Shown here one piece after another: positions 1,255-33,271 of a DNA stretch of 64,000 nucleotides; within the stretch, counting starts at the first letter, position 1; each line of letters starts with the position of its first letter. Where the stretch lies: assembly GCA_964526695.1 (NCBI GenBank), contig CAZGJA010000091.1, forward strand, positions 82,036 through 146,035, written 5' to 3'. The notes under the pieces were generated by a model. It was not told the origin of the DNA. It saw nothing but the letters and a program-made list of their open reading frames with translations, and did no database searches. A program made the position numbers and the translations under genes. The DNA comes from an uncultured Phycisphaeraceae bacterium (GTDB lineage Bacteria > Planctomycetota > Phycisphaerae > UBA1845).

Positions 1255-2805
1255 TCACGCGGCTTGTCGCGCGTCGGCGTCTTCCGTGACATCGCCTTCG
1301 TCCTCCGTGTCGTGGTTTGTCTCATCTTCCGTCGCTGGGCCCGTTGCCTGTTGCCTACTGCCTGTTGCCTGATCCAGTCCCAACTCGCGCATCAGCGCGA
1401 CCTCGCGCGCCCGCTGGCGCAGCTCGCTCTCCCAATCGAGTCCCGACTTGGCGAATTCTGCGGCCAGCGTCGTGGTGTTGCTGGCCAGCCGCGTGGCCTG
1501 CGCGTTGGCTTCCTTCTGCGGATCGACGTGCTCCAGCCCGTCCCAGAACCACTGGTGCGGGAACTCGAAGTCGAGCGTGCGGACGGATTGCGGCAGGTAA
1601 CCCTCGATCAAAACCGCCTCGTCGATCCACGCTTTGAGCACGCGGTCGAGAACGGCGTCACCGAGGTGCGCCTGATCGATGCGGATGGCCTTGAAGAACG
1701 CCTGGTGATCCAGGCGCCCGGAGGCGTAGTTGTAGCCCGAGGAATTGCCCGCGGCGATGTTGAACGGCATGTTCAGGCAGCGGGCGATCTCGTTGATCAC
1801 CTCGTGCTTGAAGTCGCCGTACATCGTGGTGGGCTGCTCGGCCTTGACCTGGCCGATCTTCCAGCCGTACGGCATGGTCATCCACGTGCCGCGGTCCATC
1901 TCCACCTGGTCCATCGGCTCGACGTTGGAAATCTCGGCATCCGCGGGCGCGTCGGTGTAGATCACGCCGCTGGGCAGCGCCGCCTGCTCGGCCGATCCGA
2001 GCACGGCCAGCGTGTATCTCCGCAGCATGGCGAACAGCGACAGCGAGCTGGTGATCTCGGGAATGCCGCGGGATTGGCCCGGGCGTTCCGCGCGGAACAG
2101 GTGGATCAATGCCGCGGCGGGCAGTATTTCGTACTCAAAGCTCCCGAATCGAGTCATGTGAACCTCGCCGGGATGCTTCTTGAGCACGTAGTACACGAGC
2201 GGATTGCCGAATTCGTCATACACGATGCCGTCCACGGCATGGGCGTGATTGCGTGCCGGGGACCAAGGCGTCGTGACCTGATCCGCTTCGATGAGTTTTA
2301 GATCAAGTTGAACCGGGGCTTCCAGACGTGGATTGGTGGACAACAGAATGAAGCACTCACCCGTCTCGCACTGTGCGACGCGCATCGTATGGAGCTTGCT
2401 TGCAAGACCCACGGCCTTCGCCCATCGCGAAAACTCTTTCTCGATGACGCGGTTGGCCTCGGGGTCATCCGTAAGCATCTGGAGCCGCGGTCCGGTACCG
2501 ACGACGTAATTGGCCAGCGTCAGCACGATGCCCTTGGCGTAGGAATTGTTCGCGACCTCGTAGCGCGCGCGGCTCCGCAGGATACGACGCACTTCCGGAT
2601 TCGCCGCGGCATCGGCCGAAAGGTTGTCGGCGTTCGCCCAGTGTCGCCGATTCTCCGGAGTCGTTTGCGCCGCGTCGTACTTCCCGCGGACGACGAGCGG
2701 TCGATACCGCGGACCGGGAGCGCTCGCGGTCAATCGCCTGCCGAGTTGTCGCAGCCACTTGAACATCGAAATGCGTCGCACAGGGTTCTGCTTGTCTCTG
2801 GCCAA
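1255..2805 (-). CDS. Phage portal protein, lambda gpB family
   Basis: 516-aa ORF. The motifs ANADNLSADAAANPEVRRILRSRARYEVANNSYAKGIV and the GTGPRLQ region are characteristic of lambda-family portals. It sits between the gpW-like gene and the protease-capsid gene. Confidence 0.8.
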   Translation of the reverse strand: MARDKQNPVRRISMFKWLRQLGRRLTASAPGPRYRPLVVRGKYDAAQTTPENRRHWANADNLSADAAANPEVRRILRSRARYEVANNSYAKGIVLTLANYVVGTGPRLQMLTDDPEANRVIEKEFSRWAKAVGLASKLHTMRVAQCETGECFILLSTNPRLEAPVQLDLKLIEADQVTTPWSPARNHAHAVDGIVYDEFGNPLVYYVLKKHPGEVHMTRFGSFEYEILPAAALIHLFRAERPGQSRGIPEITSSLSLFAMLRRYTLAVLGSAEQAALPSGVIYTDAPADAEISNVEPMDQVEMDRGTWMTMPYGWKIGQVKAEQPTTMYGDFKHEVINEIARCLNMPFNIAAGNSSGYNYASGRLDHQAFFKAIRIDQAHLGDAVLDRVLKAWIDEAVLIEGYLPQSVRTLDFEFPHQWFWDGLEHVDPQKEANAQATRLASNTTTLAAEFAKSGLDWESELRQRAREVALMRELGLDQATGSRQQATGPATEDETNHDTEDEGDVTEDADARQAA

Positions 2806-2837: not shown

Positions 2838-3035
2838 CTACACCGCTCCCGGTGGAACGACCCTTGTCATCCGCACCCCCAGCCCCTTCTTCGCCGCCTC
2901 TTTCGAGGACAGGTACCGATCCGCCTCGATCTGCTCCGTCAGCGAATGCTGCTCCACGCTGCCCGAATCGCCCGAGGCCCGCTTCGGTCCCTGGGCATTT
3001 TCCTGAATGCTTTGCTGAAGATCGGTGTCCGACAT
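2838..3035 (-). CDS. gpW-like head-tail joining protein (65 aa)
   Basis: Small ORF immediately upstream of the portal on the same strand. Size and position match lambda W. The protein has clean composition, unlike the overlapping Arg-rich shadow ORFs. Confidence 0.4.
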   Translation of the reverse strand: MSDTDLQQSIQENAQGPKRASGDSGSVEQHSLTEQIEADRYLSSKEAAKKGLGVRMTRVVPPGAV

Positions 3036-3221
3036 GGCGTTGATTCCCGGCGGCGGCTACCGCCGCCCCGTTCGACCCCCGAGCAGCACCGTCATCGCAT
3101 CGAGCAGCGTCTTCATCGTCGCGATGAGTTGGCGAACGGCCCGCCGGGTGGCGCGCCAACCCGGCGGGACCAGCTCCTGCGTCCGAATCGTGATCTTGCT
3201 GACCGTCGAGTACGCCATGAT

Positions 3222-3602
3222 TCATGCGCCCTGCACGTCGCTGCAGGCCGCGGCGATCGACCACAAGCCGAACCCCGCAAACGGCAGCTCCACCGACCGC
3301 TCGGTGCCCGCGTCGTTTTCGGTCAGCGGCACGTGCTCGGCGATCACGCCCGGCAGCGCCAGGATTTCCTCCATCGTGGACAGCCCCTCGAACGGATCGA
3401 CGCCGTCGACAAAGGGCGCTGCGGCCAGGCTCAGCTTGGTGAGCCCCGTCAGCGGCGAGCCGTCGGCATCCTGCGTCGGCAGCTTTGTGCCCACGCGCAG
3501 TCGCGAGTTGGAGAGCTGCTCGATGCTCACGATCGACGGAGCGTCAGGCCCCGTCAGGTCCAATGCACTCAAGAATCCGCGTGCGATGCGTCCGTAGCCC
3601 AT
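3222..3602 (-). CDS. Hypothetical acidic phage protein (126 aa from internal ATG)
   Basis: ORF 3222..3641, with start more likely at M14 (cat at 3600..3602). Composition is protein-like. It lies upstream of the gpW-like gene. Confidence 0.3.
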   Translation of the reverse strand: MGYGRIARGFLSALDLTGPDAPSIVSIEQLSNSRLRVGTKLPTQDADGSPLTGLTKLSLAAAPFVDGVDPFEGLSTMEEILALPGVIAEHVPLTENDAGTERSVELPFAGFGLWSIAAACSDVQGA

Positions 3603-4195
3603 GGGTCCTTCCTTCCGTGAAAAAACCGTGAATTCCGCCACGCCAAGGCTTCCTGCCCGGCTGTCGAGAGCGGTTATAGACGTGGATTTCTCTGGACCAA
3701 GCCGAAACCCCGGATTTCAGAAAGATTCTTTGGATTGGGATTGCCGACGGCACCGTCGACGATTACGCGAAGGCGACGCCAAACAAAAAGGCCGCACGGG
3801 TTCATGGCCCCATGCGGCCTTGTTCGCTCGTTCGAGAGCCGGCAGGGATCAGCCGCCGACCGCTCGCCTCCGGGAAGTCACGGCGTGGTTGTCCTACCCG
3901 TTACTTACGCGAAGCAGGCACGATTTCAACGAAGATTCCACGGTTCGCGGTGATTTGTTCCACGGGTAGATACCGGGCTCCTCCTTTCGTAGGTACTTTC
4001 CCAGCTAGAATTGGGTCAGGCCCCCCGTTGAAAGCCCTACGGAACTTTCTCTTATTGCTCTTGAACGCCTGGGGAGGAGCTGTTACACTGTTGCTACGGG
4101 AGGGCGATCTTCCGGACCTCCGGCGGGCACCCGCAGCCTGAGACTCCGTGTCGAGGAGCTGTTGGGCATCCGAGGCTAATTCGAGGAGCCAACTC

Positions 4196-7100
4196 ATGTG
4201 CGCTTCTGGTCGACTCGCGATGTTCGTTCCGGCCGTCATCATCCTTGCCTCTTTCTCCAGCCGATCATCCGCCCAAGATTGCAATCTTAACGGCATTGAC
4301 GATGCCTGCGACATCTCCTGCGGGGACCAAGGCGGCCCGTGCGACGTGCCCGGCTGCGGCCTAAGCCAAGATTGCAACTCAAATGGAATTCCCGATGAGT
4401 GCGACCTCCTTGATGGAACGAGCGAAGACTGCAATCTTAACCTAGTTCCGGACGAATGCGATGTGACGGCCGATTTCCAAGGGATGTCCGATCCTGCTTC
4501 CGTTCCTCTAGGCACAACGCCGTTTTGGATCGACTCGGCCGATGTCGACGACGATCTTCGACCCGACCTAATTGCCGTACGTTCTGGAAGTCCTGGTAAG
4601 CTCATCGTTCTCAGAAACCTCGCCGATGGCTCGTTTTCTCGTTACGACTGGGATACTACAGACAATCTTGTTCGCGTTGCTGCTGGCGATATGAACGGTG
4701 ACGCTCACATCGACGTATTGACTCTCGGGACACAGCTTGCCATCCACCTCAACTATCAGAATGGAATGTTCGGCTCTCGATCCTACTACAGCGTTGGCGA
4801 CTCAGGATGGGGTGCGGTCTTGGCCGATCTTGATCGAGACCAAGACTTGGACATCGTTGTAACGGAAGCCCGCGCCGACAATCTCTACATCTTCCGAAAC
4901 GATGGTACCGGCGCATTCCCCAACCGCACCACCTACCGAGCTGGAAGGGCGGCTGACGTTTCAACGGCTGACATCGACCGAGACGGCGACATCGACATTG
5001 TCACAAGTGCAGTGGAAGTCCTGCTCAATCGGGGTGACGGTACATTCCAGGATCCACTTGCGCAAGGGACTCGCGGCAATGACCTCTTGCTGTCCGATCT
5101 GGATGGTGATGAGTATCCTGATTTAGTGATTCTTGACGGCGAAACAGATAGCTTCAAAGTACGTAGGAACAACCACGATGGAACATTCGCCGCTCCAGAA
5201 GACTATTCTGTAGGCGATTACCCTCGCCAGGTGCTTGGTACTGACATAGATAGCGATCATGATATTGATCTCTTTGTAATCGTCGGCGGATCAGAATCTT
5301 TCTCCGTGCTGCGCAATAGAGGTGACGGCGTTTTTGACTCCATCCTCACGCTCTACGCCTCCGGCGCGAGATGCGCAGTCTTGACGGACCTCGACATGGA
5401 TGCCGACTACGACTTGGCAGTCTCTGACGGGAGACGGGGCGCTGTTGCAATCTACACGAACCAAACTACACCACCGGCAAGCTTGGACTGCAATGTTAAC
5501 CGCATTCCCGACGAGTGCGACATCGACTCTGGCACCAGCGCCGATTGTAATACTAATCTCATTCCCGACGAGTGCGACATTGCGGGTGGACCAAGCCCAG
5601 ATTGCAATAGCAACGACGTTCCGGATGAATGTGATATTCAAGACGGCACTAGCAGGGACTGCAATCTCAATGGCATCCCAGACGACTGCATCAGCCTTGA
5701 GACCGACTGTAATGGCAACGGCACTCCAGATGAATGCGACGTCCTTGATGGAACAAGTGAAGACTGCAACATGAACTTGGTTCCAGATGAATGTGATGTG
5801 GCCGATGGCTTCAGTAACGATTGCAATAATAACAGAATCCCAGATGAATGTGATGTCAGTTGCGGTGCCAGTTGCGACTGCAACAGCAATCTGGTTCCCG
5901 ACGAATGTGACATTGTTGATGGGACCAGTCAGGATTGCAATGGCAATTTGCATCCCGACGAATGTGATATTGTAGATGGCACCAGTACGGATTGCGACGA
6001 CAATACAATTCCGGATGAATGCCAAGGCGTGGTTGACTGCAATGGGAATGGTATCCTGGATGCTTGCGATATCGAAACTGGGTCTAGTTCGGATTGCAAC
6101 CTGAACGGAATTCCTGACGAATGCATCGCTGAAGAGGGCGACTGCAATGGAAACAATGTGCCCGATGAATGTGATGTCCGCCCACCCCTTCCCTTCGCTG
6201 TGGGCCTATCGTTCTGGTTCCGCGCAGATTCGATCCAGGATCTTCATGATGGAGACTCTGTATCCCTGTGGAGCGATGACTCCAGGAATCACCTTGACAT
6301 AGGACAACAAGCACCTTCGCAGCGGCCGCGGTATATGCACGGTTCATTGGGAGGTTTGCCTAGCGTCCGATTCGACGGTGACGACCTGCTGTTCCGAGAG
6401 AATGTCCTTGGAAGCCTGATCACCTCTCAAAACGAGGCCACCGTCTTTTTCGTTGCGCGCCAGACAAGTAGCGACCCGCTGAATACACTTTTTGGTTGGG
6501 TTAGTTCCACAGACCGCTTCCTAGTGCATGCTACCGTGGACGATCAGATCAGCTTTCAACACGGCGACCCAAACAACGGCGGCAAGGCAGATTGGTCGCA
6601 ACCTCAAAACTGGGACGATACCATGCACATCGTCCAGCTGTGGCGCTCAGGTACCAGCGCAGAAGCGATCGTGGATGGCGTGCTCCTTGGGCCTCGCAGT
6701 ATGACTGATACTCCTCTCTTAGGGGAAGCGACTACGCTCTATCTTGGAAGTGATATCTTCTCGAACACGTTTACAGGAGACATAGGCGAGCTCATCGTTT
6801 ACAGTAGGGCTCTAACGAACGACGAGCGCTCGGACATTGCGGAATACCTTGAGGAGCGATTCTTGTCCGGACCGAACATGCAGGATTGCAACAATAATGG
6901 AATTCCTGATACATGCACATCGGAGAACGATTGCAATACGAACGGTCTCCCAGACGAGTGCGATATTTATGGCGGTACAAGCGAGGATTGCGATTCCAAT
7001 TATATTCCGGATGAATGCGAGCAGGACTGCAACGGAAACGGAATAGTGGACGAGTGCGATATCCGTGTACCGGAAATGGAGTTTGGCCATGAAGTCATGT

Positions 7101-9826
7101 TCGACATGCTCGTAAACGAGGAGTGGGCGGCGATCGATCATGCCGATTTGAACGGCGACATGCTAGACGATTTCATCGCCACGGAAGAGGGGAGCTCTGG
7201 ATCAAGCCTGTACGTCCTCTTGAATGACGGGACCGGGGGCACCTCTGCGCCGATGGGGTTTCCATTTGGGGGTACGGGTGGAGGTCGGCTCATCATCGCT
7301 ACGGGTGATTTGAATGGGGATTTCAGGACCGACATTGTTATACCGCATGGCACGAATAACGGCAGTTGCCAATTGTTTATCAACAGAGGCGTGGACGATG
7401 CAGGCATATGGCTGGGACTCGACTCTACGCAGATCAGCTCCGGGCGTCGGGAATACTTTACCTGGGTCGACATTGCTGATTTCAATGCGGATTCCAGAAT
7501 GGATCTGGCGCTGATTGATGAGAACGGCGGACATGCATGGGTCTTTCTGAACGATTTGAACGGGCTGTTCTCGGAACAGCGGGATTTTGCGGTCGGAAGC
7601 GGTGTGCCGCGCTGCCTAGCCGTGGGCGATTTTGATCATGATCAGCGCCCTGACCTAGCGGTCTCCTGGCACGAGAGCAGCAGCGGAGTCTCCGTTTTGA
7701 TTAACTTGGGAAACGACTCTTCTCAGCGCTGGTTGGGCTTCGCAGACAGGGTGAAGTACAACGTCGACCTCGCCCCCGGAATGATAATTGCCCAGGATCT
7801 GCACGGCGATGGGTGGCTCGATTTGATTACGCTTCACGGTGACCATGTTTATGTTCTGAAGAATCTCGGACTTGGTGACGGACGATTTGGTTCCCCACGC
7901 ACTTTTGGAACAGGGGGTCGGCGGTGCCTCTGGATCGGTTCCGAGGACCTAGACAGAGACGGGGACCATGATTTGGTATTTGCGGATCCGGGAGAGATAG
8001 ATCAATTCCCGTACGGGGCGCGGATTCTGTTGAACGACGGGTTGGCTTCTTTTGGCCCGAGTGAGCTCCTATCGACGAGCTATCGACCCTCCTGGGCAAC
8101 GCTTTCTGACTTCAATCACGATGGTATCCCTGATATCGCCGCGATAACGAATTACGGATCTCCAATTATCAGCTTGTTTCAGAATGAAACTGCTCCTCCC
8201 CCAACGAGCGACGACTGCAATGGCAATCACGTCCCCGACGAATGCGATATTTCGGGAGGGCCTTCGGAAGATTGCAACAGCAACGGCATACCTGACGAAT
8301 GCGACATCGCTGAAGGAACCAGTACTGACAGGAATGCCAATGGGATTCCGGACGAGTGCGAGGCCGACATCCGCGTTATCCCTATTGCCGTGACCAGTGA
8401 TCCTGCCGCAGGGTCTGAAACCCGGAGTTCAGAACCTATCGGCGCCAATAGCATCACGCGTGGGCAGCGGTACTGGATCGAGGTCTGGGCCACTGACAAG
8501 GGCGGCGACAACACCGGGCTGACCAGTGTGTATGTCGATGCCGCTTTTTGTTCGCAGACGCACGCGCTGGCCCTCTTCCACGGAACGATCTTCGATACCT
8601 TCCCCAGCGGCACCATTGTTCAGGGAGGCCTAGATGAATTTGGCGGTTCGGCATTGCCCAGCGGGGGCGGCATTGAACCCGAATGGGTCAGGGTGGGGTG
8701 GATCGAGATGCGACCGGACAATGAAACGGCTTCGTGCATGATTGAATTGCTGCCGAGTCAAACGGGGATAGGCGCGTTTGGGCGTGGGCTCATACCGTGG
8801 GAGTTTGTCGAGCTGGGTTCCTTGGACCTTGAGATCCTCGAACCGAGCATCACGTATGATCTTGATAACGACGGTACCGTGGGCGTCGGCGATCTAGGGG
8901 TCTTTGCTACTTCCTGGATGCAAACCGTACCCCCTGCCAACGCCGCGCACGACTTCGACTGCGATGGGTTCGTTGGTCCTGGTGACCTAAGCTGGTTCGC
9001 CACGGCTTGGCTCAAAGACGTTGATGATCCCACGATCCAGTATCCCCCGCCGTGCGGAGGCCCTATGCCCGATCCCCACCGGGGTGGGCCTGACGTGGCT
9101 GTTAGCTTGATTGCCCTCACCAATCCTTCAGCGAATGATTTGGTCAACACTCTGCCGGACTCGATCGGACACGTCAACATCGGGGATACCTACTTCGTCG
9201 AGCTGTGGGTCAGCGATGTGGGCGACATTAATACGGGGGTGACGTCTGCGTATCTTGATTTGCTGTACCCGAGCAGCTCGTCTACGGTGATTCAGCTCGT
9301 CCACAGCGATCTTTACAACCTCTTCGCCAGCGGCACGGTCATGGGCGACCTCTTGGACGAACTCGGAGGTTCCAGCCTTCCCGGGAACATTGGGATTGAG
9401 CCGCAATGGGCGCGGGTCGCTGTCATCGAAGTCCTCGCCACGAGCGAGAATCAGTCGGCAGAGTTCCTCACGGCCCCGAGCGACGCCGGGGTGGCCTGCT
9501 ACGGGCGCGGGCTTATTCCGTGGAGCAACATCACTCTAGGAAGTGTAAGTGTACAGCAGGGGGGAGTGGGCGTCGATTGTGGTTCTGTGGATACTTTGAA
9601 ACTGAAGTGCAAACAGAGCACGTTCAAGCTAAAGGCCGTGCTCCTCACGATTCTGCCTGAGGGTACCGTGGTTCATCTGACCCGAGACGATGTTGACACT
9701 AGAGAAGTCGTGATTGGTCGTCGTGGCAAGGGATCGACGAAGTGGAGCAACGTAGCACAGGGCGCACATACCGTCTGCATGGATGAATGCCCCAGCATCT
9801 GTGAAAGCCGTAGCTGTAATCCGTAG
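4196..9826 (+). CDS. Giant secreted multidomain surface protein (1876 aa). It has a signal peptide, two FG-GAP/VCBS beta-propeller regions, more than 30 Cys-containing EF-hand-like DCNxNGIPDECD repeats, a LamG/ConA-like jellyroll and dockerin-like repeats.
   Basis: GAGGAG RBS 8 nt before ATG at 4196. The N-terminus MCASGRLAMFVPAVIILASFSSRSSAQD is a Sec signal. FG-GAP motifs such as DLDRDQDLDIVV...IFRNDGTGAF are present. Tandem 12-mers DCNSNGIPDECD occur throughout. A LamG-like block (IVQLWRSG...GELIVYSRALTNDERSDIAEYL) is present. Dockerin-like pairs are DLDNDGTVGVGDLGVFATSW and DFDCDGFVGPGDLSWFATAW. Confidence 0.85.
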   Translation: MCASGRLAMFVPAVIILASFSSRSSAQDCNLNGIDDACDISCGDQGGPCDVPGCGLSQDCNSNGIPDECDLLDGTSEDCNLNLVPDECDVTADFQGMSDPASVPLGTTPFWIDSADVDDDLRPDLIAVRSGSPGKLIVLRNLADGSFSRYDWDTTDNLVRVAAGDMNGDAHIDVLTLGTQLAIHLNYQNGMFGSRSYYSVGDSGWGAVLADLDRDQDLDIVVTEARADNLYIFRNDGTGAFPNRTTYRAGRAADVSTADIDRDGDIDIVTSAVEVLLNRGDGTFQDPLAQGTRGNDLLLSDLDGDEYPDLVILDGETDSFKVRRNNHDGTFAAPEDYSVGDYPRQVLGTDIDSDHDIDLFVIVGGSESFSVLRNRGDGVFDSILTLYASGARCAVLTDLDMDADYDLAVSDGRRGAVAIYTNQTTPPASLDCNVNRIPDECDIDSGTSADCNTNLIPDECDIAGGPSPDCNSNDVPDECDIQDGTSRDCNLNGIPDDCISLETDCNGNGTPDECDVLDGTSEDCNMNLVPDECDVADGFSNDCNNNRIPDECDVSCGASCDCNSNLVPDECDIVDGTSQDCNGNLHPDECDIVDGTSTDCDDNTIPDECQGVVDCNGNGILDACDIETGSSSDCNLNGIPDECIAEEGDCNGNNVPDECDVRPPLPFAVGLSFWFRADSIQDLHDGDSVSLWSDDSRNHLDIGQQAPSQRPRYMHGSLGGLPSVRFDGDDLLFRENVLGSLITSQNEATVFFVARQTSSDPLNTLFGWVSSTDRFLVHATVDDQISFQHGDPNNGGKADWSQPQNWDDTMHIVQLWRSGTSAEAIVDGVLLGPRSMTDTPLLGEATTLYLGSDIFSNTFTGDIGELIVYSRALTNDERSDIAEYLEERFLSGPNMQDCNNNGIPDTCTSENDCNTNGLPDECDIYGGTSEDCDSNYIPDECEQDCNGNGIVDECDIRVPEMEFGHEVMFDMLVNEEWAAIDHADLNGDMLDDFIATEEGSSGSSLYVLLNDGTGGTSAPMGFPFGGTGGGRLIIATGDLNGDFRTDIVIPHGTNNGSCQLFINRGVDDAGIWLGLDSTQISSGRREYFTWVDIADFNADSRMDLALIDENGGHAWVFLNDLNGLFSEQRDFAVGSGVPRCLAVGDFDHDQRPDLAVSWHESSSGVSVLINLGNDSSQRWLGFADRVKYNVDLAPGMIIAQDLHGDGWLDLITLHGDHVYVLKNLGLGDGRFGSPRTFGTGGRRCLWIGSEDLDRDGDHDLVFADPGEIDQFPYGARILLNDGLASFGPSELLSTSYRPSWATLSDFNHDGIPDIAAITNYGSPIISLFQNETAPPPTSDDCNGNHVPDECDISGGPSEDCNSNGIPDECDIAEGTSTDRNANGIPDECEADIRVIPIAVTSDPAAGSETRSSEPIGANSITRGQRYWIEVWATDKGGDNTGLTSVYVDAAFCSQTHALALFHGTIFDTFPSGTIVQGGLDEFGGSALPSGGGIEPEWVRVGWIEMRPDNETASCMIELLPSQTGIGAFGRGLIPWEFVELGSLDLEILEPSITYDLDNDGTVGVGDLGVFATSWMQTVPPANAAHDFDCDGFVGPGDLSWFATAWLKDVDDPTIQYPPPCGGPMPDPHRGGPDVAVSLIALTNPSANDLVNTLPDSIGHVNIGDTYFVELWVSDVGDINTGVTSAYLDLLYPSSSSTVIQLVHSDLYNLFASGTVMGDLLDELGGSSLPGNIGIEPQWARVAVIEVLATSENQSAEFLTAPSDAGVACYGRGLIPWSNITLGSVSVQQGGVGVDCGSVDTLKLKCKQSTFKLKAVLLTILPEGTVVHLTRDDVDTREVVIGRRGKGSTKWSNVAQGAHTVCMDECPSICESRSCNP

Positions 9827-9907
9827 GTTCAGGGTGGGAGGCGTGCTTCAGGCCATTCCTGAGAATCGCCAAGGGAGTTGGCAATTGCTGGAGGCGAGCG
9901 TCTGCGT

Positions 9908-10093
9908 TCATCCTATGACGCGCTCAATCGTCGTGACTCGGCGCCCGCAGTTCCGACATTCCCTGCGCCGCACAATCCGCCCTCCCACTCCCGAACGCGT
10001 GTAGGTCACATGGAAGTGTCCGCATCCACACTTCGGGCAACGCGGCCCGCGCTCGTTCGCCTGATTCGTAACTCCTCGCAGGCCCTCTTTCAT
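9908..10093 (-). CDS. Ogr/Delta-like C4 zinc-finger protein (61 aa)
   Basis: MKEGLRGVTNQANERGPRCPKCGCGHFHVTYTRSGVGGRIVRRRECRNCGRRVTTIERV. This is a CxxC-x22-CxxC zinc ribbon resembling P2 Ogr. The ATG at 10093..10091 overlaps the terminase TGA at 10092..10090 (ATGA coupling). Confidence 0.5.
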   Translation of the reverse strand: MKEGLRGVTNQANERGPRCPKCGCGHFHVTYTRSGVGGRIVRRRECRNCGRRVTTIERVIG

Positions 10094-12429
10094 CGCTTGG
10101 CCGCCTGAAGCTCGGACAGCCTGATCCTCACCCGCGGCGCAGGCCGCGCATCCATCCCGAACAGCATCGCCCCCTCCATCGACGCCGCCACGGCGCAACC
10201 GACCAGACAATCCAGCCAGTGGTTGTCCGCGCCGTCGAGGCGCAGCTTCCATTCATCCACCGTGCGGCCGCGGCCCTCCGTTTTCACGCGGTACTCGCTG
10301 GTCAGATGCTCGGCGACCAGGCGGTGGTCATCGGGATTGCGGCCGAAGAGCGACAGGCACCCCGGGTCGCCCATCGGCACAGCCAGCCGGGCGTGGACGA
10401 AGCTCTTCCAGAAGTTCGTATCGAAGAGCGCATGCCGGACGGACCGCCGGGCAGCAACGAGCGGGATGCGCCAGTTCAGCCCCACGCGGTCGCCGCGCTT
10501 GCGCTTGTAATCGGCAAAGGGAATCGACGACGCGCCGACGTAGCGGCCGTGGCTCGGCATGATGATGCCCGCGTGCTTGCTCTGCCGGCAGAACTGATAG
10601 ACCACGTCCGACGACTGGCCCCAGTTGGCGTCGATCAAACACCGATCGATCCGTACCATCGCCCCGTCGTCGCGCCGCCATTCACGACCGACCGTTCGGT
10701 CGCACAGCCGCTCCAGTCCCGCGTAGATCGCGCCTTCCATACCCGCACGCGGCACTGCGGACGCCAGCGTGTGACGCATGTCTCGCAGCGTAAAGTAGGC
10801 CGTCTGCTGATCGGGTTCGGTGCCGTAGTCGATGACGTGCCCGGTAAAGTCGTTCTCCCACGCGGCGATAAGCCAGAACAGCGCCTTGCCCTGCACGTCG
10901 ATGAACATCGTCACGTGCGTCGCGCCGATGGGGATCTCGCCGCGGCGCAGGCCGTTGACCTTCGCGGCGATCTGATCGGCGGTGAGCAGGTCCTCGTCGG
11001 CGTGCTCCTCGGGGAGCGGTTCGTTCTGATATTCCGCCCAGAACGCCACGTCGCCGCGATCCAGGCGCAGGTTCATCGCGTGCTGAATGGCGGACAGCTC
11101 GTCGGGATGGTGCCGCTGCGGCCAGGCGATGACCGCGCCGTCGTCCATCGCCGCGCGGTTCTCCGCGTAGAACTGCGTGGCCTCACCCATGCCACGATCG
11201 GCGCGCATCCCGTCGCGCCACAGCTCCGAATACCGCGCCCACAGCGCCTCGTTGGTGGGGAACGTGTACACCATCTTCGTCCGCTCGCCCTGCCACTGCG
11301 GGTGCTTGTCTCGGTCCAGGATGCGGTCGGCCAGGTCGGAAGGGCGAACCACCGTCAATGCCATCAACCCGGCGATTTTCCGCCCCGGACCAGCCAGGCC
11401 CAGGATCGCGCCGGCCAGAATGCGCTCGCGCGCCGCGCACTGCGACGGCGACCGCGCGGATTCATCCGTCTGCGGGTCGTCAATGAGCACCAGCGACGGG
11501 CGGACGGAGGACCCGTCCACCCGTTTGTGCTTCATCCCGCGGATGCGGCCAGTGATCCCCGACACGCAAATGATCGCGCCGGACGCGCGGCTCCCGGGCA
11601 TGGTGGGCAGCACGATCTCCTTGGCCGTCCAGCCGATGTGCGTCTGCTTGCCCTGGAAGAGCTGCCCTGCGGCGCGCTGGTGGATGCCCTCCAACGCCTG
11701 GATCGGGAAGCGGACCTCGGGAAAGTCGTCCAGCAGCAGGTCATTGGACTCCAGCTCGACCTTGATCGAGTCGAGCATGTTCTCCGCGTGGTCCTCGTCG
11801 CTGCCGATGAGCGCGATGAACTCGCGGTGCCCGTAGATCAGCGACCACAGGCAGGCCGTCTCACACAGGCTCGTCTTACCGCTGCCGCGCGGCATGGCCA
11901 TTGCGAACAGCCCGCCCTCCAGCACGGCCTTTTCGATCTTGCCGATCACCTTCAGGTGATCCGGCGACCACGGCAGGTGGAACGTGAGCGGGAAGTACCG
12001 CTCGCAGAAGAAGCGGAAGTCGCGTTCGGCCCGCGCCTTCCACTGCGGGTTGGCGATCGCCGGCAGCTCGCCGATGTCGCGCCCTGACAGTGACATCTGC
12101 TCGGCGCGCGCCCGGGCGCGCTCTTTCACCGCGTCGTAGCCGACCAACCCTTCGGGCTCGGGTCGCGGCCGATGCCGCTCGAGGACCAGCCACGCGACGT
12201 AGCGCAGCAGGTCCACAATCCTCCCGTCGCCGATGCGGAATCCCGCGCGTGAACGATGGCGGTGGAGCTGGCGCTCCGAGATGACCTCACCCAGCGGCGT
12301 GGAATTGAGCAGCCGCACGAGTTCGGTCGGTTTCAACTTGCGCGGGTCAATCGGCAGAATAATGCCCTCCACGAGCCCATTCGCGATACGATACGAGCCG
12401 AGTGAAGTCTGTTGTCGAGGGCGAAACAT
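10090..12429 (-). CDS. Phage terminase large subunit, GpA family
   Basis: 779 aa. The Walker A motif is AMPRGSGKTS. There is GpA-type ATPase/nuclease architecture (LIDDPQTDE; nuclease region IDVQGKALFWLIAAWENDF). Confidence 0.9.
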   Translation of the reverse strand: MFRPRQQTSLGSYRIANGLVEGIILPIDPRKLKPTELVRLLNSTPLGEVISERQLHRHRSRAGFRIGDGRIVDLLRYVAWLVLERHRPRPEPEGLVGYDAVKERARARAEQMSLSGRDIGELPAIANPQWKARAERDFRFFCERYFPLTFHLPWSPDHLKVIGKIEKAVLEGGLFAMAMPRGSGKTSLCETACLWSLIYGHREFIALIGSDEDHAENMLDSIKVELESNDLLLDDFPEVRFPIQALEGIHQRAAGQLFQGKQTHIGWTAKEIVLPTMPGSRASGAIICVSGITGRIRGMKHKRVDGSSVRPSLVLIDDPQTDESARSPSQCAARERILAGAILGLAGPGRKIAGLMALTVVRPSDLADRILDRDKHPQWQGERTKMVYTFPTNEALWARYSELWRDGMRADRGMGEATQFYAENRAAMDDGAVIAWPQRHHPDELSAIQHAMNLRLDRGDVAFWAEYQNEPLPEEHADEDLLTADQIAAKVNGLRRGEIPIGATHVTMFIDVQGKALFWLIAAWENDFTGHVIDYGTEPDQQTAYFTLRDMRHTLASAVPRAGMEGAIYAGLERLCDRTVGREWRRDDGAMVRIDRCLIDANWGQSSDVVYQFCRQSKHAGIIMPSHGRYVGASSIPFADYKRKRGDRVGLNWRIPLVAARRSVRHALFDTNFWKSFVHARLAVPMGDPGCLSLFGRNPDDHRLVAEHLTSEYRVKTEGRGRTVDEWKLRLDGADNHWLDCLVGCAVAASMEGAMLFGMDARPAPRVRIRLSELQAAKR

Positions 12430-12829
12430 GGCTGATCAGCACATATCGAGCACTTTCGGTTGCCCGCAGTGCTTCGGTCCGGACCCCGAGGCCGCGTGGC
12501 AACACAAGCTGAAGCCTCGCAGCGAGCTGATTGATGAGTCGCACTTCGGCGTGACGCTCGGTTGCTGTCCAGCCTGCAATCAAACGTTTGTCTCGATCTT
12601 CACGGAGTTCGTCGATTGGATCGATGGCGATGATCCGCAGTATTGGGATCGCCTCCCGCTGACCGCGGCGGAAGCCGATGCGCTGGCCCTCCAAAGTGCC
12701 GCCGTGAACCTCAAGCAGATCGAGGAATTCGGTCGCGACCGCCGCCGGCTCAAGGTGGATTACCCCAAGGGCGCGCCGCGCCGGATCGCCTGGGTTACGG
12801 GCGGACTTGCGATCGTGCCCGGCCACTGA
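12428..12829 (+). CDS. Hypothetical Cys-rich small protein (133 aa)
   Basis: The ATG at 12428 overlaps the divergent terminase start (cat at 12427..12429). The sequence MADQHISSTFGCPQCFGPDPEAAWQHK...GCCPACNQTF has protein-like composition. The overlapping minus ORF 12347..12865 is Arg-rich shadow. Confidence 0.4.
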   Translation: MADQHISSTFGCPQCFGPDPEAAWQHKLKPRSELIDESHFGVTLGCCPACNQTFVSIFTEFVDWIDGDDPQYWDRLPLTAAEADALALQSAAVNLKQIEEFGRDRRRLKVDYPKGAPRRIAWVTGGLAIVPGH

Positions 12830-12854: not shown

Positions 12855-13082
12855 TTACCCGGCACGATTGACCATCTCCTTGATCAGCCACGCCGCATAG
12901 TGGACCAGGTTCATCGACCCGTCCGCATTCGTGGGCGCTCCGACGACGACGTCGGCTTCGATCATCTCGACGTCCACGCGCTCCCCGCCGACGGCCGACA
13001 GCAGCCGCGCGGCGTCGGCCAGAGGCAGCGCCGTGGGATTCAGGCCGGGCCGGAAAGTTTCAGGCGGCGAGCCGTTGGCCAT
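12855..13082 (-). CDS. Nu1-like terminase small subunit, N-terminal wHTH-like, 75 aa
   Basis: From the internal ATG (13080..13082) with GGAGGA SD: MANGSPPETFRPGLNPTALPLADAARLLSAVGGERVDVEMIEADVVVGAPTNADGSMNLVHYAAWLIKE. The pattern resembles lambda Nu1 N-terminus (LADIFG...YDSAAVIKWY). Confidence 0.35.
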   Translation of the reverse strand: MANGSPPETFRPGLNPTALPLADAARLLSAVGGERVDVEMIEADVVVGAPTNADGSMNLVHYAAWLIKEMVNRAG

Positions 13083-13238
13083 TGCAGGTCCTCCACTGAA
13101 GGGGGCGAGGTCCGCCACGGGTACGCCCACGACGCGCTGCGGGCCCACGTGGGCCGCCCTGCGCGACGCGCGGCGGCCACGGGGCCAACCCGGCGTTGCC
13201 CATCGCGCCAGGGCCGCCCGGCGCGGTGTCACGCCTTT

Positions 13239-13270
13239 GACAGTTCAACCCAAACTTTATGCGAAAATAT
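13239..13270 (+). promoter_or_regulatory. Candidate early promoter (TTGACA -35) for the plus-strand small-gene block
   Basis: ttgacagttcaacccaaactttatgcgaaaatatc lies in a locally AT-richer divergent intergenic region between the Nu1-like gene and 13369. Confidence 0.3.
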
Positions 13271-13368
13271 CTTCCGAAAAAGCGGGGAAACGCTTCCCAT
13301 CTGCGAAAACCAAGCGTAAGGACATGCATGACGCGATCGCGATGGGGCGGCGCGAATGGAGACCAAAG

Positions 13369-13560
13369 ATGACAACGCAAACGATCGAACGACTGACGCG
13401 AGGCACGCGGGTGATCAACATCACCGACGGCGAACCGGGGACGATTGAAGGCGTCTGCACCTACCGCCGAGGCGGACGGGTGTGGTCCTACGCGGTGGTG
13501 ACCACCTACGGCCGCGAGGTCTGGGACGCGAGCGAGACGCTGGTGATCGAGCAGGAGTAA
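13369..13560 (+). CDS. Small hypothetical phage protein (63 aa)
   Basis: GGAGA SD 9 nt before the ATG. The sequence MTTQTIERLTRGTRVINITDGEPG... is the first gene of the plus-strand small-gene block. Confidence 0.4.
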   Translation: MTTQTIERLTRGTRVINITDGEPGTIEGVCTYRRGGRVWSYAVVTTYGREVWDASETLVIEQE

Positions 13561-13572
13561 AGGAGAACGAAC

Positions 13573-13938
13573 ATGAAGACGACGACCGACCCGAACACGA
13601 AGACGCCGGCGAGCAACCCAGACATGAAGAATTGGGAACTGCCGCTGCTGGCCAAGGCCCGCAGGTTCTACCAGGTCACCGTGACCGAGAACGCCGGCAA
13701 CGAGCCCGCCTTCCTGCGGGCCAAGCTCGTCCAGCACGGAGCGGAGGCCGCCGACGACGCCGCGCGACGCATCCACGGGCTGATCCGAACGCTCAACGAA
13801 GCCTACGAGCGGCTGATGAACGCGGGCACGATCGATGACGCCAAGAACGCGGTGTCCTGGCTGCGGACCGATGCCTGGGACACCGTGCAGCGCGACATCG
13901 CCACGCTGGACGCGATCAGCCAGGCGCTGCGGGCTTGA
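13573..13938 (+). CDS. Hypothetical phage protein (121 aa)
   Basis: AGGAGA SD before the ATG. Helical composition. Confidence 0.55.
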   Translation: MKTTTDPNTKTPASNPDMKNWELPLLAKARRFYQVTVTENAGNEPAFLRAKLVQHGAEAADDAARRIHGLIRTLNEAYERLMNAGTIDDAKNAVSWLRTDAWDTVQRDIATLDAISQALRA

Positions 13939-13971
13939 TGAATGACACGCCGAACCCAAGGAGATCGAAAG

Positions 13972-14169
13972 ATGACCACGACCCACGCAACGACCACGAC
14001 CCGGCTCAGCCGGATGGACACGATCCGACTTCAGAAGGTGCTCAAGAGCCTCGTAGCGGCGATGGACGTGCTGCAGCGCTGCGACGACCCCGCGCTGCGC
14101 GAGGCGGCGGATGACGAACTCATGGATGTCGCGGGGCGCTTCGAGATGCTCCTCGACGAGAACCGGTAA
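13972..14169 (+). CDS. Hypothetical small phage protein (65 aa)
   Basis: AAGGAG SD before the internal ATG at 13972 (ORF track start 13942). Confidence 0.45.
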   Translation: MTTTHATTTTRLSRMDTIRLQKVLKSLVAAMDVLQRCDDPALREAADDELMDVAGRFEMLLDENR

Positions 14170-14214
14170 CACGCGCTTCCGGGCCACGCACCCGGCAAGC
14201 CAGGAGATCGAACG

Positions 14215-14442
14215 ATGAAGGCTGCCGTTGCGATTCACTATGACGCGGGTTTGGAGCGCGAAGCGCTGGCCAAGGACATGGCCGACTGGATGGCCGCGGA
14301 GTTCATTCCGTTCAAGCGCGCCCAGCGCATCGAACGCCGCATCCGCACACAGGCCCGCATGACCGGCCTCAGCGTCGAGACCATTCGTGAAGACATCCGT
14401 AGCGACGCGCGCGCCATGCTGGCCGAGGAAGGCATCGAGTAA
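14215..14442 (+). CDS. Hypothetical small phage protein (75 aa)
   Basis: CAGGAGA SD. Tightly spaced tandem small genes. Confidence 0.5.
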   Translation: MKAAVAIHYDAGLEREALAKDMADWMAAEFIPFKRAQRIERRIRTQARMTGLSVETIREDIRSDARAMLAEEGIE

Positions 14443-14469
14443 CCCCGCAACCTTGAAGGAGACCGAAAG

Positions 14470-14712
14470 ATGACCACGAACGATACCCAAAAGACCGCGA
14501 TCGAAACCTACACCGCCCGCCGCGCGGACATCGTCCGGCTGATCGACGTGCTGGAGATGGAGCTCGGCAAGTACGACGAGCGCGCCCAGGCCGAGCCGCA
14601 GCGCTGGGATTTTCCCGGCACGCTCGACTACGTCCGCACCACGCTCATCGACCTGGTCGAAGGCCTGTCGGGCATCGAGCGCGGCGAGATCGAACAATTC
14701 CTCAGCGAATGA
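14470..14712 (+). CDS. Hypothetical small phage protein (80 aa)
   Basis: GAAGGAGA SD. Confidence 0.5.
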   Translation: MTTNDTQKTAIETYTARRADIVRLIDVLEMELGKYDERAQAEPQRWDFPGTLDYVRTTLIDLVEGLSGIERGEIEQFLSE

Positions 14713-14724
14713 AAGGAGCGACCT

Positions 14725-14955
14725 ATGAAGACGATGACGTTTGAAGCGATCGAGTTCGATTCGGCCCATGAGGCCATCCAGCACTACTACGCCAGCGGCC
14801 ACGGCGACCGGGTGATCCAACTCGGCGGCAAGGCCTACCTGACCACGGAGGCGGAGGCCGAGCGCCTCGCCGCGGCGGGCGTCGAGTTCGCCTACGTCTT
14901 CGACCACGACCTGCCCGACGGGCGCAACGTGATCATGACCGTGCCGGTGAACTGA
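14725..14955 (+). CDS. Hypothetical small phage protein (76 aa)
   Basis: AAAGGAG SD. Confidence 0.5.
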   Translation: MKTMTFEAIEFDSAHEAIQHYYASGHGDRVIQLGGKAYLTTEAEAERLAAAGVEFAYVFDHDLPDGRNVIMTVPVN

Positions 14956-15036
14956 CCGCGACCCGAACGCGAGCGCCCTACGGGGCGTCAGCGCCCGGGC
15001 CGCATGGGGCGGCTCGAGGTTGAAAGGAGGAACGCG

Positions 15037-16038
15037 ATGAAGAAGAACGCGGTTCACCTGAACGGGACGTACACCGCGAAGGTGAGTGGCAAGATCGTGC
15101 GTGTCCGCATCGATGCGGAAAGCCCGTACGGGGGCTGGGACGCCACCAACCTCGGCACGCGGAAGAAGATCCGTGTGAAGAGCGCCCAGCGCCTGCGGGC
15201 CGAGGTGGGCGGCACGACGCCGCCGGCGGGCCAAGGGAACGCCCCCGTGGCGAACGTGGCGAGGGACGAGGCCAAGCCGCCCAAGGCCTACGACCCGAAC
15301 CGCTGCGCCACGAGTCGGTGCAAGGGCGAGCCGGCGCTGACGTACCTCGGCAAGCCGCTGTGCCAGAGATGCTGGGACCGACACTGCGCGGAGGAACCGG
15401 CGAGCGCGATGGTCACCGAAGGCGCGGTGCCGCTCGCGGAGGGATTGAACACGTCGCCCGTTGCGGCGGCGAATGAGGCGTCCTGGGAGCGTGCGCTGCC
15501 GGGACCGGAAGATGGGGTGAACGAGGACGACGAACACGAGGACGACAAGGATGAGGACGCCGGCAACGCGCCGGCCAACACCGGCGATGCCGGAGAACTG
15601 GACACCGAAGACATGGCCACGAAGACGAAAAACAAGAAGAGCAAGGTCCGCAAGGGCGTGACGAAGACGACTGCGGCGCGCAAGCCCAAGGTCACGGCGG
15701 ACGCCAGGACGTCGCCCGCCAAGGGCGCGAGGCCCACGAAGTCCAAGGCCCAGCGGACGACGAAGGCCGCGCCGGCCAACGGCGACGGCAAGGCCAAGCG
15801 CGTCAGCGCCATCGACGCCGCGGCGGTGATCCTCAAGGACGCGGGCACGCCGATGCGCTCGCGCGAGATCATCGAAGCCGCCGCCTCCAAAGGTCTGTGG
15901 ACCAGCCCCGCGGGCAAGACGCCGCACGCAACGCTCGACGCGGCCATGCGCCGCGAGATCAACACCAAGGGCAAGGATGCGCGGTTCACGGTCGAAGGCC
16001 GAGGCCTGTTCGGCTTCAACGCCAAGGCGGGGGCGTAG
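15037..16038 (+). CDS. DNA-binding protein with N-terminal CxxC zinc ribbon, Lys-rich histone-H1-like linker and C-terminal HARE-HTH domain
   Basis: AAAGGAGG SD before ATG 15037. The C-terminus AIDAAAVILKDAGTPMRSREIIEAAASKGLWTSPAGKTPHATLDAAMRREI...FTVEGRGLFGF matches the HARE-HTH pattern. The linker is KTKNKKSKVRKGVTKTTAARKPKV. Confidence 0.55.
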   Translation: MKKNAVHLNGTYTAKVSGKIVRVRIDAESPYGGWDATNLGTRKKIRVKSAQRLRAEVGGTTPPAGQGNAPVANVARDEAKPPKAYDPNRCATSRCKGEPALTYLGKPLCQRCWDRHCAEEPASAMVTEGAVPLAEGLNTSPVAAANEASWERALPGPEDGVNEDDEHEDDKDEDAGNAPANTGDAGELDTEDMATKTKNKKSKVRKGVTKTTAARKPKVTADARTSPAKGARPTKSKAQRTTKAAPANGDGKAKRVSAIDAAAVILKDAGTPMRSREIIEAAASKGLWTSPAGKTPHATLDAAMRREINTKGKDARFTVEGRGLFGFNAKAGA

Positions 16039-16041
16039 GTC

Positions 16042-16440
16042 ATGACGACCGCACCGATCGACAACGCGCCGCCTCGGCAACGCGTGGATGTTTTCGAGGT
16101 CCTCGACGGATGTCTGGTGCGCCGGGTCGTCCCCCGCCGCGGCGAACCGTACGAGCATCGCTGTCCGCTGGAGACCTACCGCGAACTGACGTGGGCGGCG
16201 ATCGACCTGGCCGCCGACGGCTTCACCGTCGAGACGCTGGCGGATCAGGTCCGCAGCCGACCGATCGAGGAGCACGACGACCGCGAGCCGTGGGCGTCGT
16301 ACACCAACGCCGCCGTGGCCATCGCGTTCTGGAAGGAGCGCGGGATCGTCGAAACCCGCCGCCGCCGTAACTATGTGGACGACGGGTACTTCTTCGAGGA
16401 TTCGATGATCATGTACCACGCGCTGGCCGAAGGCGCCTGA
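16042..16440 (+). CDS. Hypothetical phage protein (132 aa)
   Basis: Starts 3 nt after the previous stop. Protein-like composition. Confidence 0.5.
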   Translation: MTTAPIDNAPPRQRVDVFEVLDGCLVRRVVPRRGEPYEHRCPLETYRELTWAAIDLAADGFTVETLADQVRSRPIEEHDDREPWASYTNAAVAIAFWKERGIVETRRRRNYVDDGYFFEDSMIMYHALAEGA

Positions 16441-16561
16441 CCTCACGTACCCGCCTCCGACACCTCGGCCGACACCGGGGTGTTTCTCCGGCAACAGAGC
16501 AAAAACCAGCGAGCGCGATATACTTGAGGCGGAGCGCCTGCACCTTCGGGGGAAAAGTCGA

Positions 16562-19430: not shown

Positions 19431-20018
19431 GTTGGACCTCCCTGTCCGGAGCGCATCATGTTCCCAACGGCCACGGTATCGCGGCCATCTGCGATTCAAC
19501 CCCAACCGGGGGAATTCCGGTTTTCCCGGAACGGCCACGGCTGGCCTCTGGGGCGTCCGTGCCGAGCCGCGTACGCACGGCCAACCCGCGGCCCGCGTCG
19601 CCCCAGGGCGGCCCGGATCGCGTCGTGGGGCCTCCTGGGCCGGCGAAGCACCCAACCAAAAGCGGACAGGGGGTTGTCCGGTCGTAACTCTTTATTCCCT
19701 CGCGTCTTATGGAAAAACCGGACAGCCGAAAGAAAGTCATTCGATAAGCAGCGCTGTTCCCGCTGGCATTTTCGCAGTATTACTTCACGAAGGAACCATT
19801 GCTTACTCGCGCACAACTCGTGCGAGAGGTTCAAGGGGAGTCGGCGACCAACTTTAGAATCGGTTCCATGCTAACGCTTGCGAGCACGTGTCTCCCGACG
19901 TGAGCCAATGACTGATGGCCCGCCAGCCCTTGGGCCGTGAGCTCCCGTTCGTGTAGAATTCCCCCTAGGCGTGGGCCCGCCGGAGGCGCCTTCGGACCGG
20001 AAGGAGGAGAGCTAACAG

Positions 20019-33198: not shown

Positions 33199-33271
<73 letters not shown>

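Follow-up and report, generated by a model that had tools for sequence, protein, structure and literature searches.

A giant gene for a putative exported protein in the terminase-portal hotspot of a Phycisphaerae prophage

The DNA analysed here is a stretch of 64,000 nucleotides, called the window below, from an uncultured Phycisphaeraceae bacterium (contig CAZGJA010000091.1, positions 82,036 to 146,035). It contains a prophage in which a long segment separates the gene of the terminase large subunit, TerL, from that of the portal protein. The segment carries a giant gene that is oriented opposite to the late genes and encodes a protein of 1,876 residues. How did a gene of this kind come to lie between the packaging and head genes of a phage, and what might its product do?

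The most probable answer, to which a probability of about 0.78 can be given, is that the segment is accessory cargo of the lysogenic-conversion type located in a recurrent hotspot, and that its product would be an exported ligand-binding scaffold or adaptor using the export and assembly systems of the host. On this reading, the giant gene is an unusually large but conceptually ordinary phage moron and not a part of the virion. The phage family is widespread, uncultured, tRNA-integrating and temperate, and its hosts are Phycisphaerae (Planctomycetota).

The variable junction between terminase and portal genes

The features of the junction are as follows (open reading frame is abbreviated to ORF; GC3 is the G+C content of third codon positions).

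1255-2805, minus strand: portal gene of the lambda family (Phage_portal_2, 1.2e-57, 196 bits; phrog_21)
2838-3035, minus strand: gene for 65 residues that directly precedes the portal gene, in the position of gpW (53-88% identity in related loci)
3057-3218, minus strand: putative coding ORF of 53 residues in phage sense, without homologues among the related loci
3222-3602, minus strand: phage-sense gene for 126 residues (GC3 0.86; no family match)
3778-3887, minus strand (phage sense): conserved structured non-coding element of 110 nt, the right-hand anchor of the hotspot (blastn, alignment, RNAalifold)
3888-4195, plus strand: non-coding region upstream of the giant gene, containing GAGGAG at 4183-4188
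4196-9826, plus strand: giant cargo gene, 1,876 residues
9908-10093, minus strand: gene for a zinc ribbon (ZnR) of 61 residues, the left-hand anchor of the hotspot (best Pfam match Zn_ribbon_NrdR, 4e-10)
10090-12429, minus strand: TerL of the lambda gpA type (Pfam GpA_nuclease, 4.7e-24, 85.5 bits; phrog_38, 1.2e-36)

The distance from the stop codon of the zinc-ribbon gene (9908) to the start of the gene at the gpW position (3035) is 6,872 bp (segment 3036-9907), close to the 6.9 kb estimated in a preliminary description of this DNA. The names 'Ogr' and 'gpW-like', which that description gave to the two genes bordering the segment, find no support in profile searches. Ogr_Delta does not match the zinc ribbon in a Pfam profile search even at E values up to 1, and the 65-residue protein has no match in Pfam, NCBIfam or PHROG, only its size and position being those of gpW. 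The ATG of the ZnR gene overlaps the TerL stop codon (ATGA), an arrangement indicative of translational coupling, and the ZnR gene is kept after TerL in most related loci. The NCBI model of TerL has 760 residues, and its start is probably near 12369.

TerL defines the phage family. The window protein is 74-90% identical to hundreds of homologues from Phycisphaerae and IMG/VR. Relatives were confirmed in 455 stretches of species-representative genomes and in 508 stretches of IMG/VR contigs. Almost all of them are found in metagenome-assembled genomes (MAGs) of Phycisphaerae or Planctomycetota, often two to four per MAG, and no isolated phage in GenBank has a terminase that exceeds 30% identity. 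Copies within single MAGs differ in their content at the junction and often lie at contig ends (for example, the loci numbered L002/L003/L004, L024/L026/L027/L031 and L051/L071/L077).

For the comparison of the junction, 165 related loci were fetched, in 150 of which both TerL and the gpW-position gene are present and the gap between them could be measured. The gene order (TerL, zinc ribbon, gap, gpW-position gene, portal) is the same in all 150. The gap has a median of about 205 bp. It is shorter than 500 bp in 98 loci, 500-1300 bp in 22 and at least 1300 bp in 30, with a maximum of 5,812 bp, and the gap of the window is thus the largest of the 151. Homologous prophages do not all carry the giant gene at this place: an orthologue is present in none of the 165 loci. 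The cargo found in other large gaps is mutually unrelated and may lie on either strand. The TerL-ZnR to gpW-portal junction is a phage diversity hotspot with presence/absence polymorphism, in which conserved genes on both sides enclose cargo that is present in some relatives and absent or unrelated in others.

The recognizable cargo families are DarT with a NADAR antitoxin, McrBC, an N6_N4 methylase, radical SAM proteins, a heavy-metal P-type ATPase, AbiEi/AbiEii, DUF488, HTH-M78, Fic and pentapeptide proteins. Proteins of a secreted type occur as well: L015 has dockerin and PEP-CTERM proteins, L022 has PMP repeats together with dockerin, L030 encodes proteins with signal peptides, and a protein of 1,389 residues in L026 combines NHL with the DCN repeats described below. 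The DarT-NADAR, McrBC, AbiEi/AbiEii, radical SAM (with a partner of about 640 residues), Fic and P-type ATPase cargo is spread over L057 (11977-14277), L054 (12150-15315), L090 (11342-12870), L048 (12607-15546), L133 (12359-13993) and L003 (15182-17638). Several cargo ORFs match no family, such as those of 602 residues in L007, 494 in L023 and 364 in L011, and may represent new defence genes.

The closest relative, L161 (TerL 90% identical), is compact and consists of TerL, a gene for 123 residues, gpW, portal and capsid. L162-165 (TerL 89%), by contrast with this arrangement, have three tandem Kelch genes on the opposite strand, about 6.3 kb in total, starting 41 bp past the ZnR stop codon. 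In three of these assemblies, which represent one lineage (L162-L164, 12494-22268), the Kelch cargo is followed by a sulfatase gene, and neither gpW nor a portal gene is found within 9.8 kb; either the prophage is truncated there or the cargo region is very large. IMG/VR contigs of the same family carry up to 4.1 kb of cargo at this site. The giant gene had been described as an unusual cargo for a head module. Since gaps of at least 500 bp are present in 35% of the loci and L162-165 have about 6.3 kb, this is true of its size and type of protein, but not of its position.

The composition of the segment sets it apart. The G+C content of the window is about 65% and falls to 51-58% across 3.6-10 kb. 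The GC3 of the giant gene is 0.60 and is low throughout its length (0.53-0.67), compared with 0.80-0.88 in the phage core and host genes of the window and 0.77-0.88 in the neighbouring phage genes. The giant gene is therefore foreign in origin. A second gene of the same prophage, at 20019-22346, has a GC3 of 0.58 and the same codon preferences, and thus both genes are recent imports from a donor pool of lower G+C content.

Not all of the 6,872 bp is foreign, however. Besides the giant gene, which was the only content noticed earlier, the segment holds the ORFs 3222-3602 and 3057-3218, both located between the 110-nt element and the gpW-position gene, and the element itself. The 55 N-terminal residues of the 126-residue protein are 44% identical to the 123-residue gene product that L161 encodes in the corresponding position. 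Cargo and the 110-nt element occur together in 12 genome loci, and in each of them the cargo sits between the ZnR stop codon and the element. The insert proper consequently spans approximately 3888-9907 and comprises a single gene, preceded by 308 nt and followed by 81 nt.

The 110-nt element is 76-88% identical in relatives and is predicted to form three hairpins, the last of which is a 13-bp intrinsic terminator (3821-3788) with compensatory changes. RNAalifold gives 27 pairs, six of them with compensatory changes. A covariance model matches the window and 30 of the 165 loci, each time on the strand of the phage genes (copies are found in L012/L046 at 12587-12695, L003 at 18027-18135, L081 at 7845-7953 and others), and in those genome loci for which a comparison of positions was made, the element is upstream of the gpW-position gene. 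Its invariant core is TTCCCGGAGGCGAGCGG. Rfam has nothing at gathering score for it, only matches at chance level (E 0.17 and 0.65). In one subclade, the hotspot lies upstream of this conserved, terminator-bearing element. Placed where the head operon begins, the element may act as a terminator or attenuator, or it may be a small RNA. The sequence TTGCAT-16-TAAGTA upstream of the element resembles a promoter, but it fails the -10 rule of the promoter scan and is not claimed as one.

A transposon or a site-specific cassette can be rejected as the origin of the insert, because there is no transposase, no insertion sequence (IS) end and no meaningful flanking repeat. The sole flanking repeat is an inverted pair of 16 nt (3861-3876 and 9885-9900). 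It is treated as a chance occurrence because about six such pairs are expected in 6.5 kb and because 15 other loci lack its core motif in the vicinity of the ZnR end.

The giant protein and its C-terminal domain

The plus-strand ORF extends over 4148-9826. With the ATG at 4196, which is preceded by the Shine-Dalgarno sequence GAGGAG, it gives the 1,876-residue product proposed earlier, identical to the NCBI-derived protein P0001, the only member of its cluster. The modules of the protein are given below from the N-terminus to the C-terminus, all on the plus strand.

4196-4273: signal-peptide-like N-terminus, MCASGRLAMFVPAVIILASFSSRSSAQ/D (inspection, and a hydropathy of 2.79 over LAMFVPAVIILA)
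4277-4462: first block of DCNxNGxPDxCD (DCN) repeats, 3 repeats (regular-expression count)
4520-5470: FG-GAP beta-propeller 1 (FG-GAP_3, 9.5e-33; seven Ca-loop motifs at residues 116-398, spaced by about 48 residues)
5486-6175: second block, 13 DCN repeats
6443-6826: LamG or concanavalin-A-like domain (Laminin_G_3, 1e-9; 39.1 bits, cutoff 27.6)
6884-7060: third block, 4 DCN repeats
7118-8200: FG-GAP beta-propeller 2 (FG-GAP_3, 1.8e-32; FG-GAP, 9.5e-17; 6(+1) motifs, six of them clear at residues 984-1305)
8213-8362: fourth block, 3 DCN repeats
8369-9559: cohesin-like (8369-8839), dockerin-like (8855-9022) and cohesin-like (9095-9559) modules (structure prediction and Foldseek)
9569-9823: C-terminal domain (CTD) of 85 residues with four cysteines, shared with the Kelch cargo and a host M14 peptidase

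By inspection, the N-terminus has Arg6, the hydrophobic stretch LAMFVPAVIILASF and the sequence SSA-Q/D. It is the only part of the protein with a hydropathy resembling that of a transmembrane segment. The two FG-GAP regions and the LamG domain of the preliminary description are confirmed by the profile matches. In both FG-GAP regions the motifs recur about every 50 residues, and both are read as seven-bladed propellers.

The repeats required more correction. More than 30 EF-hand-like 12-mers had been claimed, whereas a regular expression finds 23, of which 20 are strict and three are variants. They are arranged in four blocks, usually with a period of 19 residues, and the DNA repeat families of the gene have a corresponding spacing of 57 nt. 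The repeats match no Pfam family, including TSP_3 (PF02412), and no sequence in the PDB. In AlphaFold2 (AF2) models each unit is a loop followed by a short helix, the best model having a predicted local distance difference test score (pLDDT) of 80.5 and two of the five being poor. The only Foldseek match of the repeat model is COMP (3fby), with an E value of 0.75 and a probability of 0.06. With neither a profile nor a good fold match, the likeness to thrombospondin type 3 (TSP3) repeats and EF-hands is a resemblance only, consisting of the pattern D-x-N-x-N-G-x-x-D-x-x-D and the Cys pair; on this pattern the loops may bind calcium.

The C-terminal 492 residues were modelled by AF2 with a mean pLDDT of 81.6. 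The model is good up to residue 407, most 10-residue blocks across the cohesin- and dockerin-like modules are above 85, and the chain forms a beta-sandwich, two helices and a second beta-sandwich. In a Foldseek search of the PDB, the sandwiches match the cohesins 1g1k, 6kgd, 2jh2, 5nrm and 3ul4 with TMt scores of 0.63-0.72 and root mean square deviations of 3.2-5.3. The Pfam Cohesin profile has no match in the giant protein, and thus the assignment is made at the level of the fold only. The part between the sandwiches had been described as paired dockerin-like repeats. This agrees with the two DxDxDG loops (residues 1555 and 1586), with the two helices of the model and with the presence of PF00404 in the homologues P0246, P0248, P0253 and P0254, but Dockerin_1 stays below threshold in the window protein itself. 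The whole cohesin/dockerin/cohesin module has counterparts, at 45-62% identity, in the C-terminal regions of about 40 proteins from Planctomycetota, and the homologues of each module of the giant protein are multi-domain secreted proteins of Phycisphaerae. Whole-sequence searches of the PDB with the giant protein and exact-sequence contig look-ups with this protein and the portal gave no match, and NCBIfam has none for the giant, Kelch, 126-residue or gpW-position proteins.

The CTD links the giant protein to two other genes of the window.

20019-22346, plus strand: Kelch cargo gene of the same prophage, encoding a signal-peptide-like N-terminus, a Kelch propeller, an Ig I-set domain and the CTD
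35298-37760, plus strand: native M14 carboxypeptidase gene of the host, outside the prophage (Peptidase_M14, 1.3e-95; GC3 0.88)

The three copies of the domain are encoded at 9569-9823, 22095-22343 and 37503-37757. BLASTP does not match the C-termini of the giant and Kelch proteins, and their kinship was seen only through the L162 intermediates and a hidden Markov model (HMM). The Kelch cargo of L162-165 carries the same domain, 29-31% identical to that of the giant protein, and the window Kelch protein is 41-43% identical to the three hotspot Kelch genes of these loci. The HMM of the CTD also matches the C-terminus of the host peptidase (2.9e-5).

When a profile made from these three copies was searched against 1.84 billion proteins, it retrieved 224 representatives. 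The domain is at the extreme C-terminus in about 80% of the 150 matches listed, while a sub-class has an additional 110-118 residues after it. It is attached to M12B, S8 and M14 peptidases and to GSDH, WD40, propeller and beta-helix domains, and 66 of 91 full-length members have a hydrophobic N-terminus. No Pfam family, including Por_Secre_tail, matches the CTD, and the domain is apparently undescribed. Its position in these proteins makes it look like a host-type C-terminal sorting or anchoring module.

Proposed role, alternative explanations and other parts of the window

These findings suggest the following sequence of events. The prophage acquired a single, compositionally foreign gene at the hotspot, in the orientation opposite to that of the late genes. 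The encoded protein has the organization of an extracellular protein of Phycisphaerae, with a signal-peptide-like N-terminus, Cys-paired Ca-loop-like spacers, integrin-type propellers, LamG, a cohesin-like/dockerin-like/cohesin-like module and a host-type CTD. The lysogen would express the gene and export the protein by the Sec pathway of the host and by whatever system handles the shared CTD. At the cell surface or in the exoproteome, the protein could serve as a ligand-binding scaffold or adaptor that plugs into cohesin-dockerin assemblies. The outcome would be a lysogenic conversion of the surface and not a virion structure. An adhesin or lectin function, as proposed earlier, is suggested by the domains, and a fitness effect on the lysogen may be supposed.

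Several observations weigh against this picture. Neither a promoter nor a terminator was found for the giant gene (the scan of 3888-4195, which covered the sigma-70 consensus only, gave no promoter-like site), and therefore its autonomous expression can only be presumed. The left part of the prophage extends beyond the window, and its integrity can be judged only for the visible part. The lack of gpW and portal genes within 9.8 kb past the cargo of L162-164 may mean that large cargo at this site is carried in some cases by defective elements. The signal peptide is putative, judged by inspection and hydropathy. Two of the five AF2 repeat models have a pLDDT below 50, and the repeats have no structural neighbour of note. 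The Dockerin_1 profile (PF00404) reaches an E value of 0.052 and 14.2 bits, below its cutoff of 22.9.

Some of these points lead to the idea that the prophage is defective and that a secondary insertion or rearrangement gave rise to the segment and became fixed while the element decayed, the giant gene being effectively a host gene in phage debris. In L162-164 the large opposite-strand cargo is indeed followed by a sulfatase gene in place of gpW and portal, a 6.9-kb cargo is larger than any other seen and could exceed the packaging slack, and only a part of the prophage is visible. The visible part, however, is in good order. TerL, the zinc ribbon, the gpW-position gene and the portal all have their full length and share 79-90% identity with their relatives, and positions 2682-1 of the window align with the portal and capsid genes of L161 at 80%, colinear into the capsid gene. 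There is no transposase, IS end or meaningful flanking repeat, and the cargo in the IMG/VR contigs of the family shows that the site is also occupied there. The other end of the prophage is intact:

31855-33180, minus strand: tyrosine integrase (Phage_integrase, 1.3e-14)
33198-33272, minus strand: tRNA-Lys next to the integrase, the prophage end (joint span 31855-33272)

A defective prophage is therefore considered unlikely. The high identity of TerL across many MAGs had also raised the idea of a domesticated element similar to gene transfer agents. This was rejected because of the two to four copies per MAG, the integrase and tRNA end, the approximately 500 IMG/VR contigs and the highly variable cargo. 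The element is a prophage.

The giant protein might instead serve the phage itself at the cell surface, by masking or remodelling the receptor layer and thereby excluding superinfection by related phages. Most of the identifiable cargo at the site is anti-phage or toxin-antitoxin in nature (AbiE, DarTG, McrBC, radical SAM, Fic), and known hotspots are enriched in genes for competition between viruses (PMC9122126). No domain of the giant protein is linked to exclusion, however, and the hotspot also holds the metal ATPase and several secreted dockerin proteins that have no defence signature. Such a role, which is a functional sub-case of accessory cargo, appears quite improbable.

That the protein is a structural or decoration protein of the virion, such as a fibre or a capsid-displayed adhesin belonging to the head module, is very hard to sustain. 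The gene does lie between the packaging and head genes, and phage particles can indeed display Ig-like, lectin and propeller domains. It is nevertheless missing from all 165 related loci, 98 of the 150 measurable junctions have no room for it, its strand is opposite to that of all structural genes, and its GC3 is foreign; the protein begins with a signal-peptide-like sequence and ends with a domain common to a host carboxypeptidase. The preliminary description, which favoured a moron or else a secondary insertion and argued against a role in the virion, is upheld by the absence of orthologues, by the contiguity of those 98 loci and by the composition. An assembly chimera that joined host DNA into the prophage contig, as might be suspected in a 146-kb contig of an uncultured genome with a sharp shift in G+C content at both ends of the segment, is similarly remote, because both junctions fall exactly at the cargo site of the family with colinear phage sequence on either side, because a second gene with the same composition and CTD is located elsewhere in the prophage, and because related assemblies independently have large cargo at the site.

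Other parts of the window deserve a brief description. The minus strand of the prophage also encodes AAA_24, a helicase and a ParB-N6/N4 DNA methyltransferase. The last of these (ORF 17202-19655, minus strand) has an insertion of about 278 residues, encoded at 17577-18410, that is missing in the 450-residue homologues of L161 and L162. The insertion starts with a cysteine (CQPAGTQVLTADG) and ends with VTHN/C. The Pfam Intein_splicing profile matches it below threshold (E 0.0032), and the insertion is probably an intein. An ORF of 1,283 residues on the minus strand at 13060-16911 is probably spurious because its GC1 (0.81) exceeds its GC3 (0.64), and it was rejected as a gene. The AT skew of this region is strongly positive (0.2-0.45). 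By analogy with L161, the region probably holds a run of small plus-strand genes, including a HARE-HTH homologue. An 807-residue ORF in phage sense (22869-25292, minus strand) without a family match takes the place of the Prim-Pol/AAA_25 primase of L161 and L162. No similarity between the two could be detected, and the replication module has thus been swapped. In the host part of the window, a c-di-AMP riboswitch of the ydaO/yuaA type (Rfam RF00379, 61.5 bits) is present at 59605-59774 on the plus strand.

Relation to known systems

Morons and hotspots delimited by anchor genes are well known. In phage P2, the old/tin locus between gpA and the portal gpQ is a hotspot of prophage diversity and defence (Rousset et al. 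2022, PMC9122126; Egorov et al. 2024 preprint, 10.1101/2024.10.15.618418). The junction described here resembles the P2/P4 hotspots in being a short locus between conserved phage genes where unrelated accessory genes, often of an anti-phage kind, are replaced at a high rate, in the presence or absence of cargo among close relatives, and in the deviant composition of that cargo. It differs from them in the phage family, which has no GenBank isolate above 30% TerL identity, in the host phylum, Planctomycetota, and in the site, which extends from the TerL-zinc-ribbon pair to the gpW-portal pair and is not the cos-proximal gpA/Q locus. Furthermore, the single window gene measures 5.6 kb, whereas P2/P4 cargo is typically 1-5 kb, and it encodes a putative component of the exoproteome and not a defence system. 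What is new is thus the phage family, the host phylum, the site, the 5.6-kb single cargo gene and the recurrence of host-style exoproteome modules.

It is of practical value that a cargo site precisely delimited by anchor genes is now defined in a very widespread uncultured phage family of Planctomycetota, a phylum whose phage biology is almost unknown. As the hotspot has already yielded AbiE, DarTG, McrBC and radical SAM cargo, it could be mined for new defence systems. The prophages of this phylum also carry large proteins of a host secreted type with cohesin/dockerin modules and a rare CTD, and these offer a handle on the assembly and exchange of Phycisphaerae surface complexes.

Prophage-encoded proteins that act on the host surface and alter adhesion or other surface properties include Lom and Bor of lambda and PblA and PblB of Streptococcus mitis SM1, the latter two being virion proteins as well. 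The giant protein has no known sequence relationship to any of the four, is far larger and has a modular, host-type organization. It is not conserved in its phage family. As far as the CTD is concerned, a likeness exists to the C-terminal sorting domains of the type IX secretion system, which are also about 80-85 residues long, are found at the extreme C-terminus and belong to diverse secreted enzymes and adhesins with N-terminal signal peptides. The window CTD is different from them in its four conserved cysteines, the absence of a Por_Secre_tail match, the tiny size of its family and the absence of linked secretion machinery.

A close parallel to the protein as a whole is the 'planctosome', a model, itself hypothetical, of extracellular cohesin-dockerin complexes in Phycisphaerae (Nemodlikiaceae) that are encoded by chromosomal genes (Andrei et al. 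2019, PMC6461901). Its components are large signal-peptide proteins with TSP3-like repeats and cohesin or dockerin modules, and M12B and M14 peptidases have been proposed as their partners (PMC6461901). Where those proteins have LTD, P-domains and HYR, the window protein has FG-GAP propellers and LamG; its dockerin-like part stays below the Pfam threshold, TSP_3 does not match its repeats, and its gene is borne by a prophage. It parallels the planctosome proteins in combining a signal-peptide-like N-terminus with TSP3-like repeats and cohesin-like and dockerin-like modules; M12B and M14 peptidases are also members of the CTD family, and the native M14 enzyme of the host carries the same CTD. 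A broader, decidedly tentative proposal is that the temperate phages of Phycisphaerae move host cohesin-dockerin components of the planctosome type between cells by way of the terminase-portal hotspot and a second site. The giant protein would then be a phage-borne scaffoldin or adaptor, routed by its four-Cys C-terminal sorting domain and rewiring the enzymes or ligands that the lysogen displays. If this were so, the architecture of the exoproteome in this phylum, encoded on the chromosome in the planctosome model, would be in part a mobile trait transmitted by phages.

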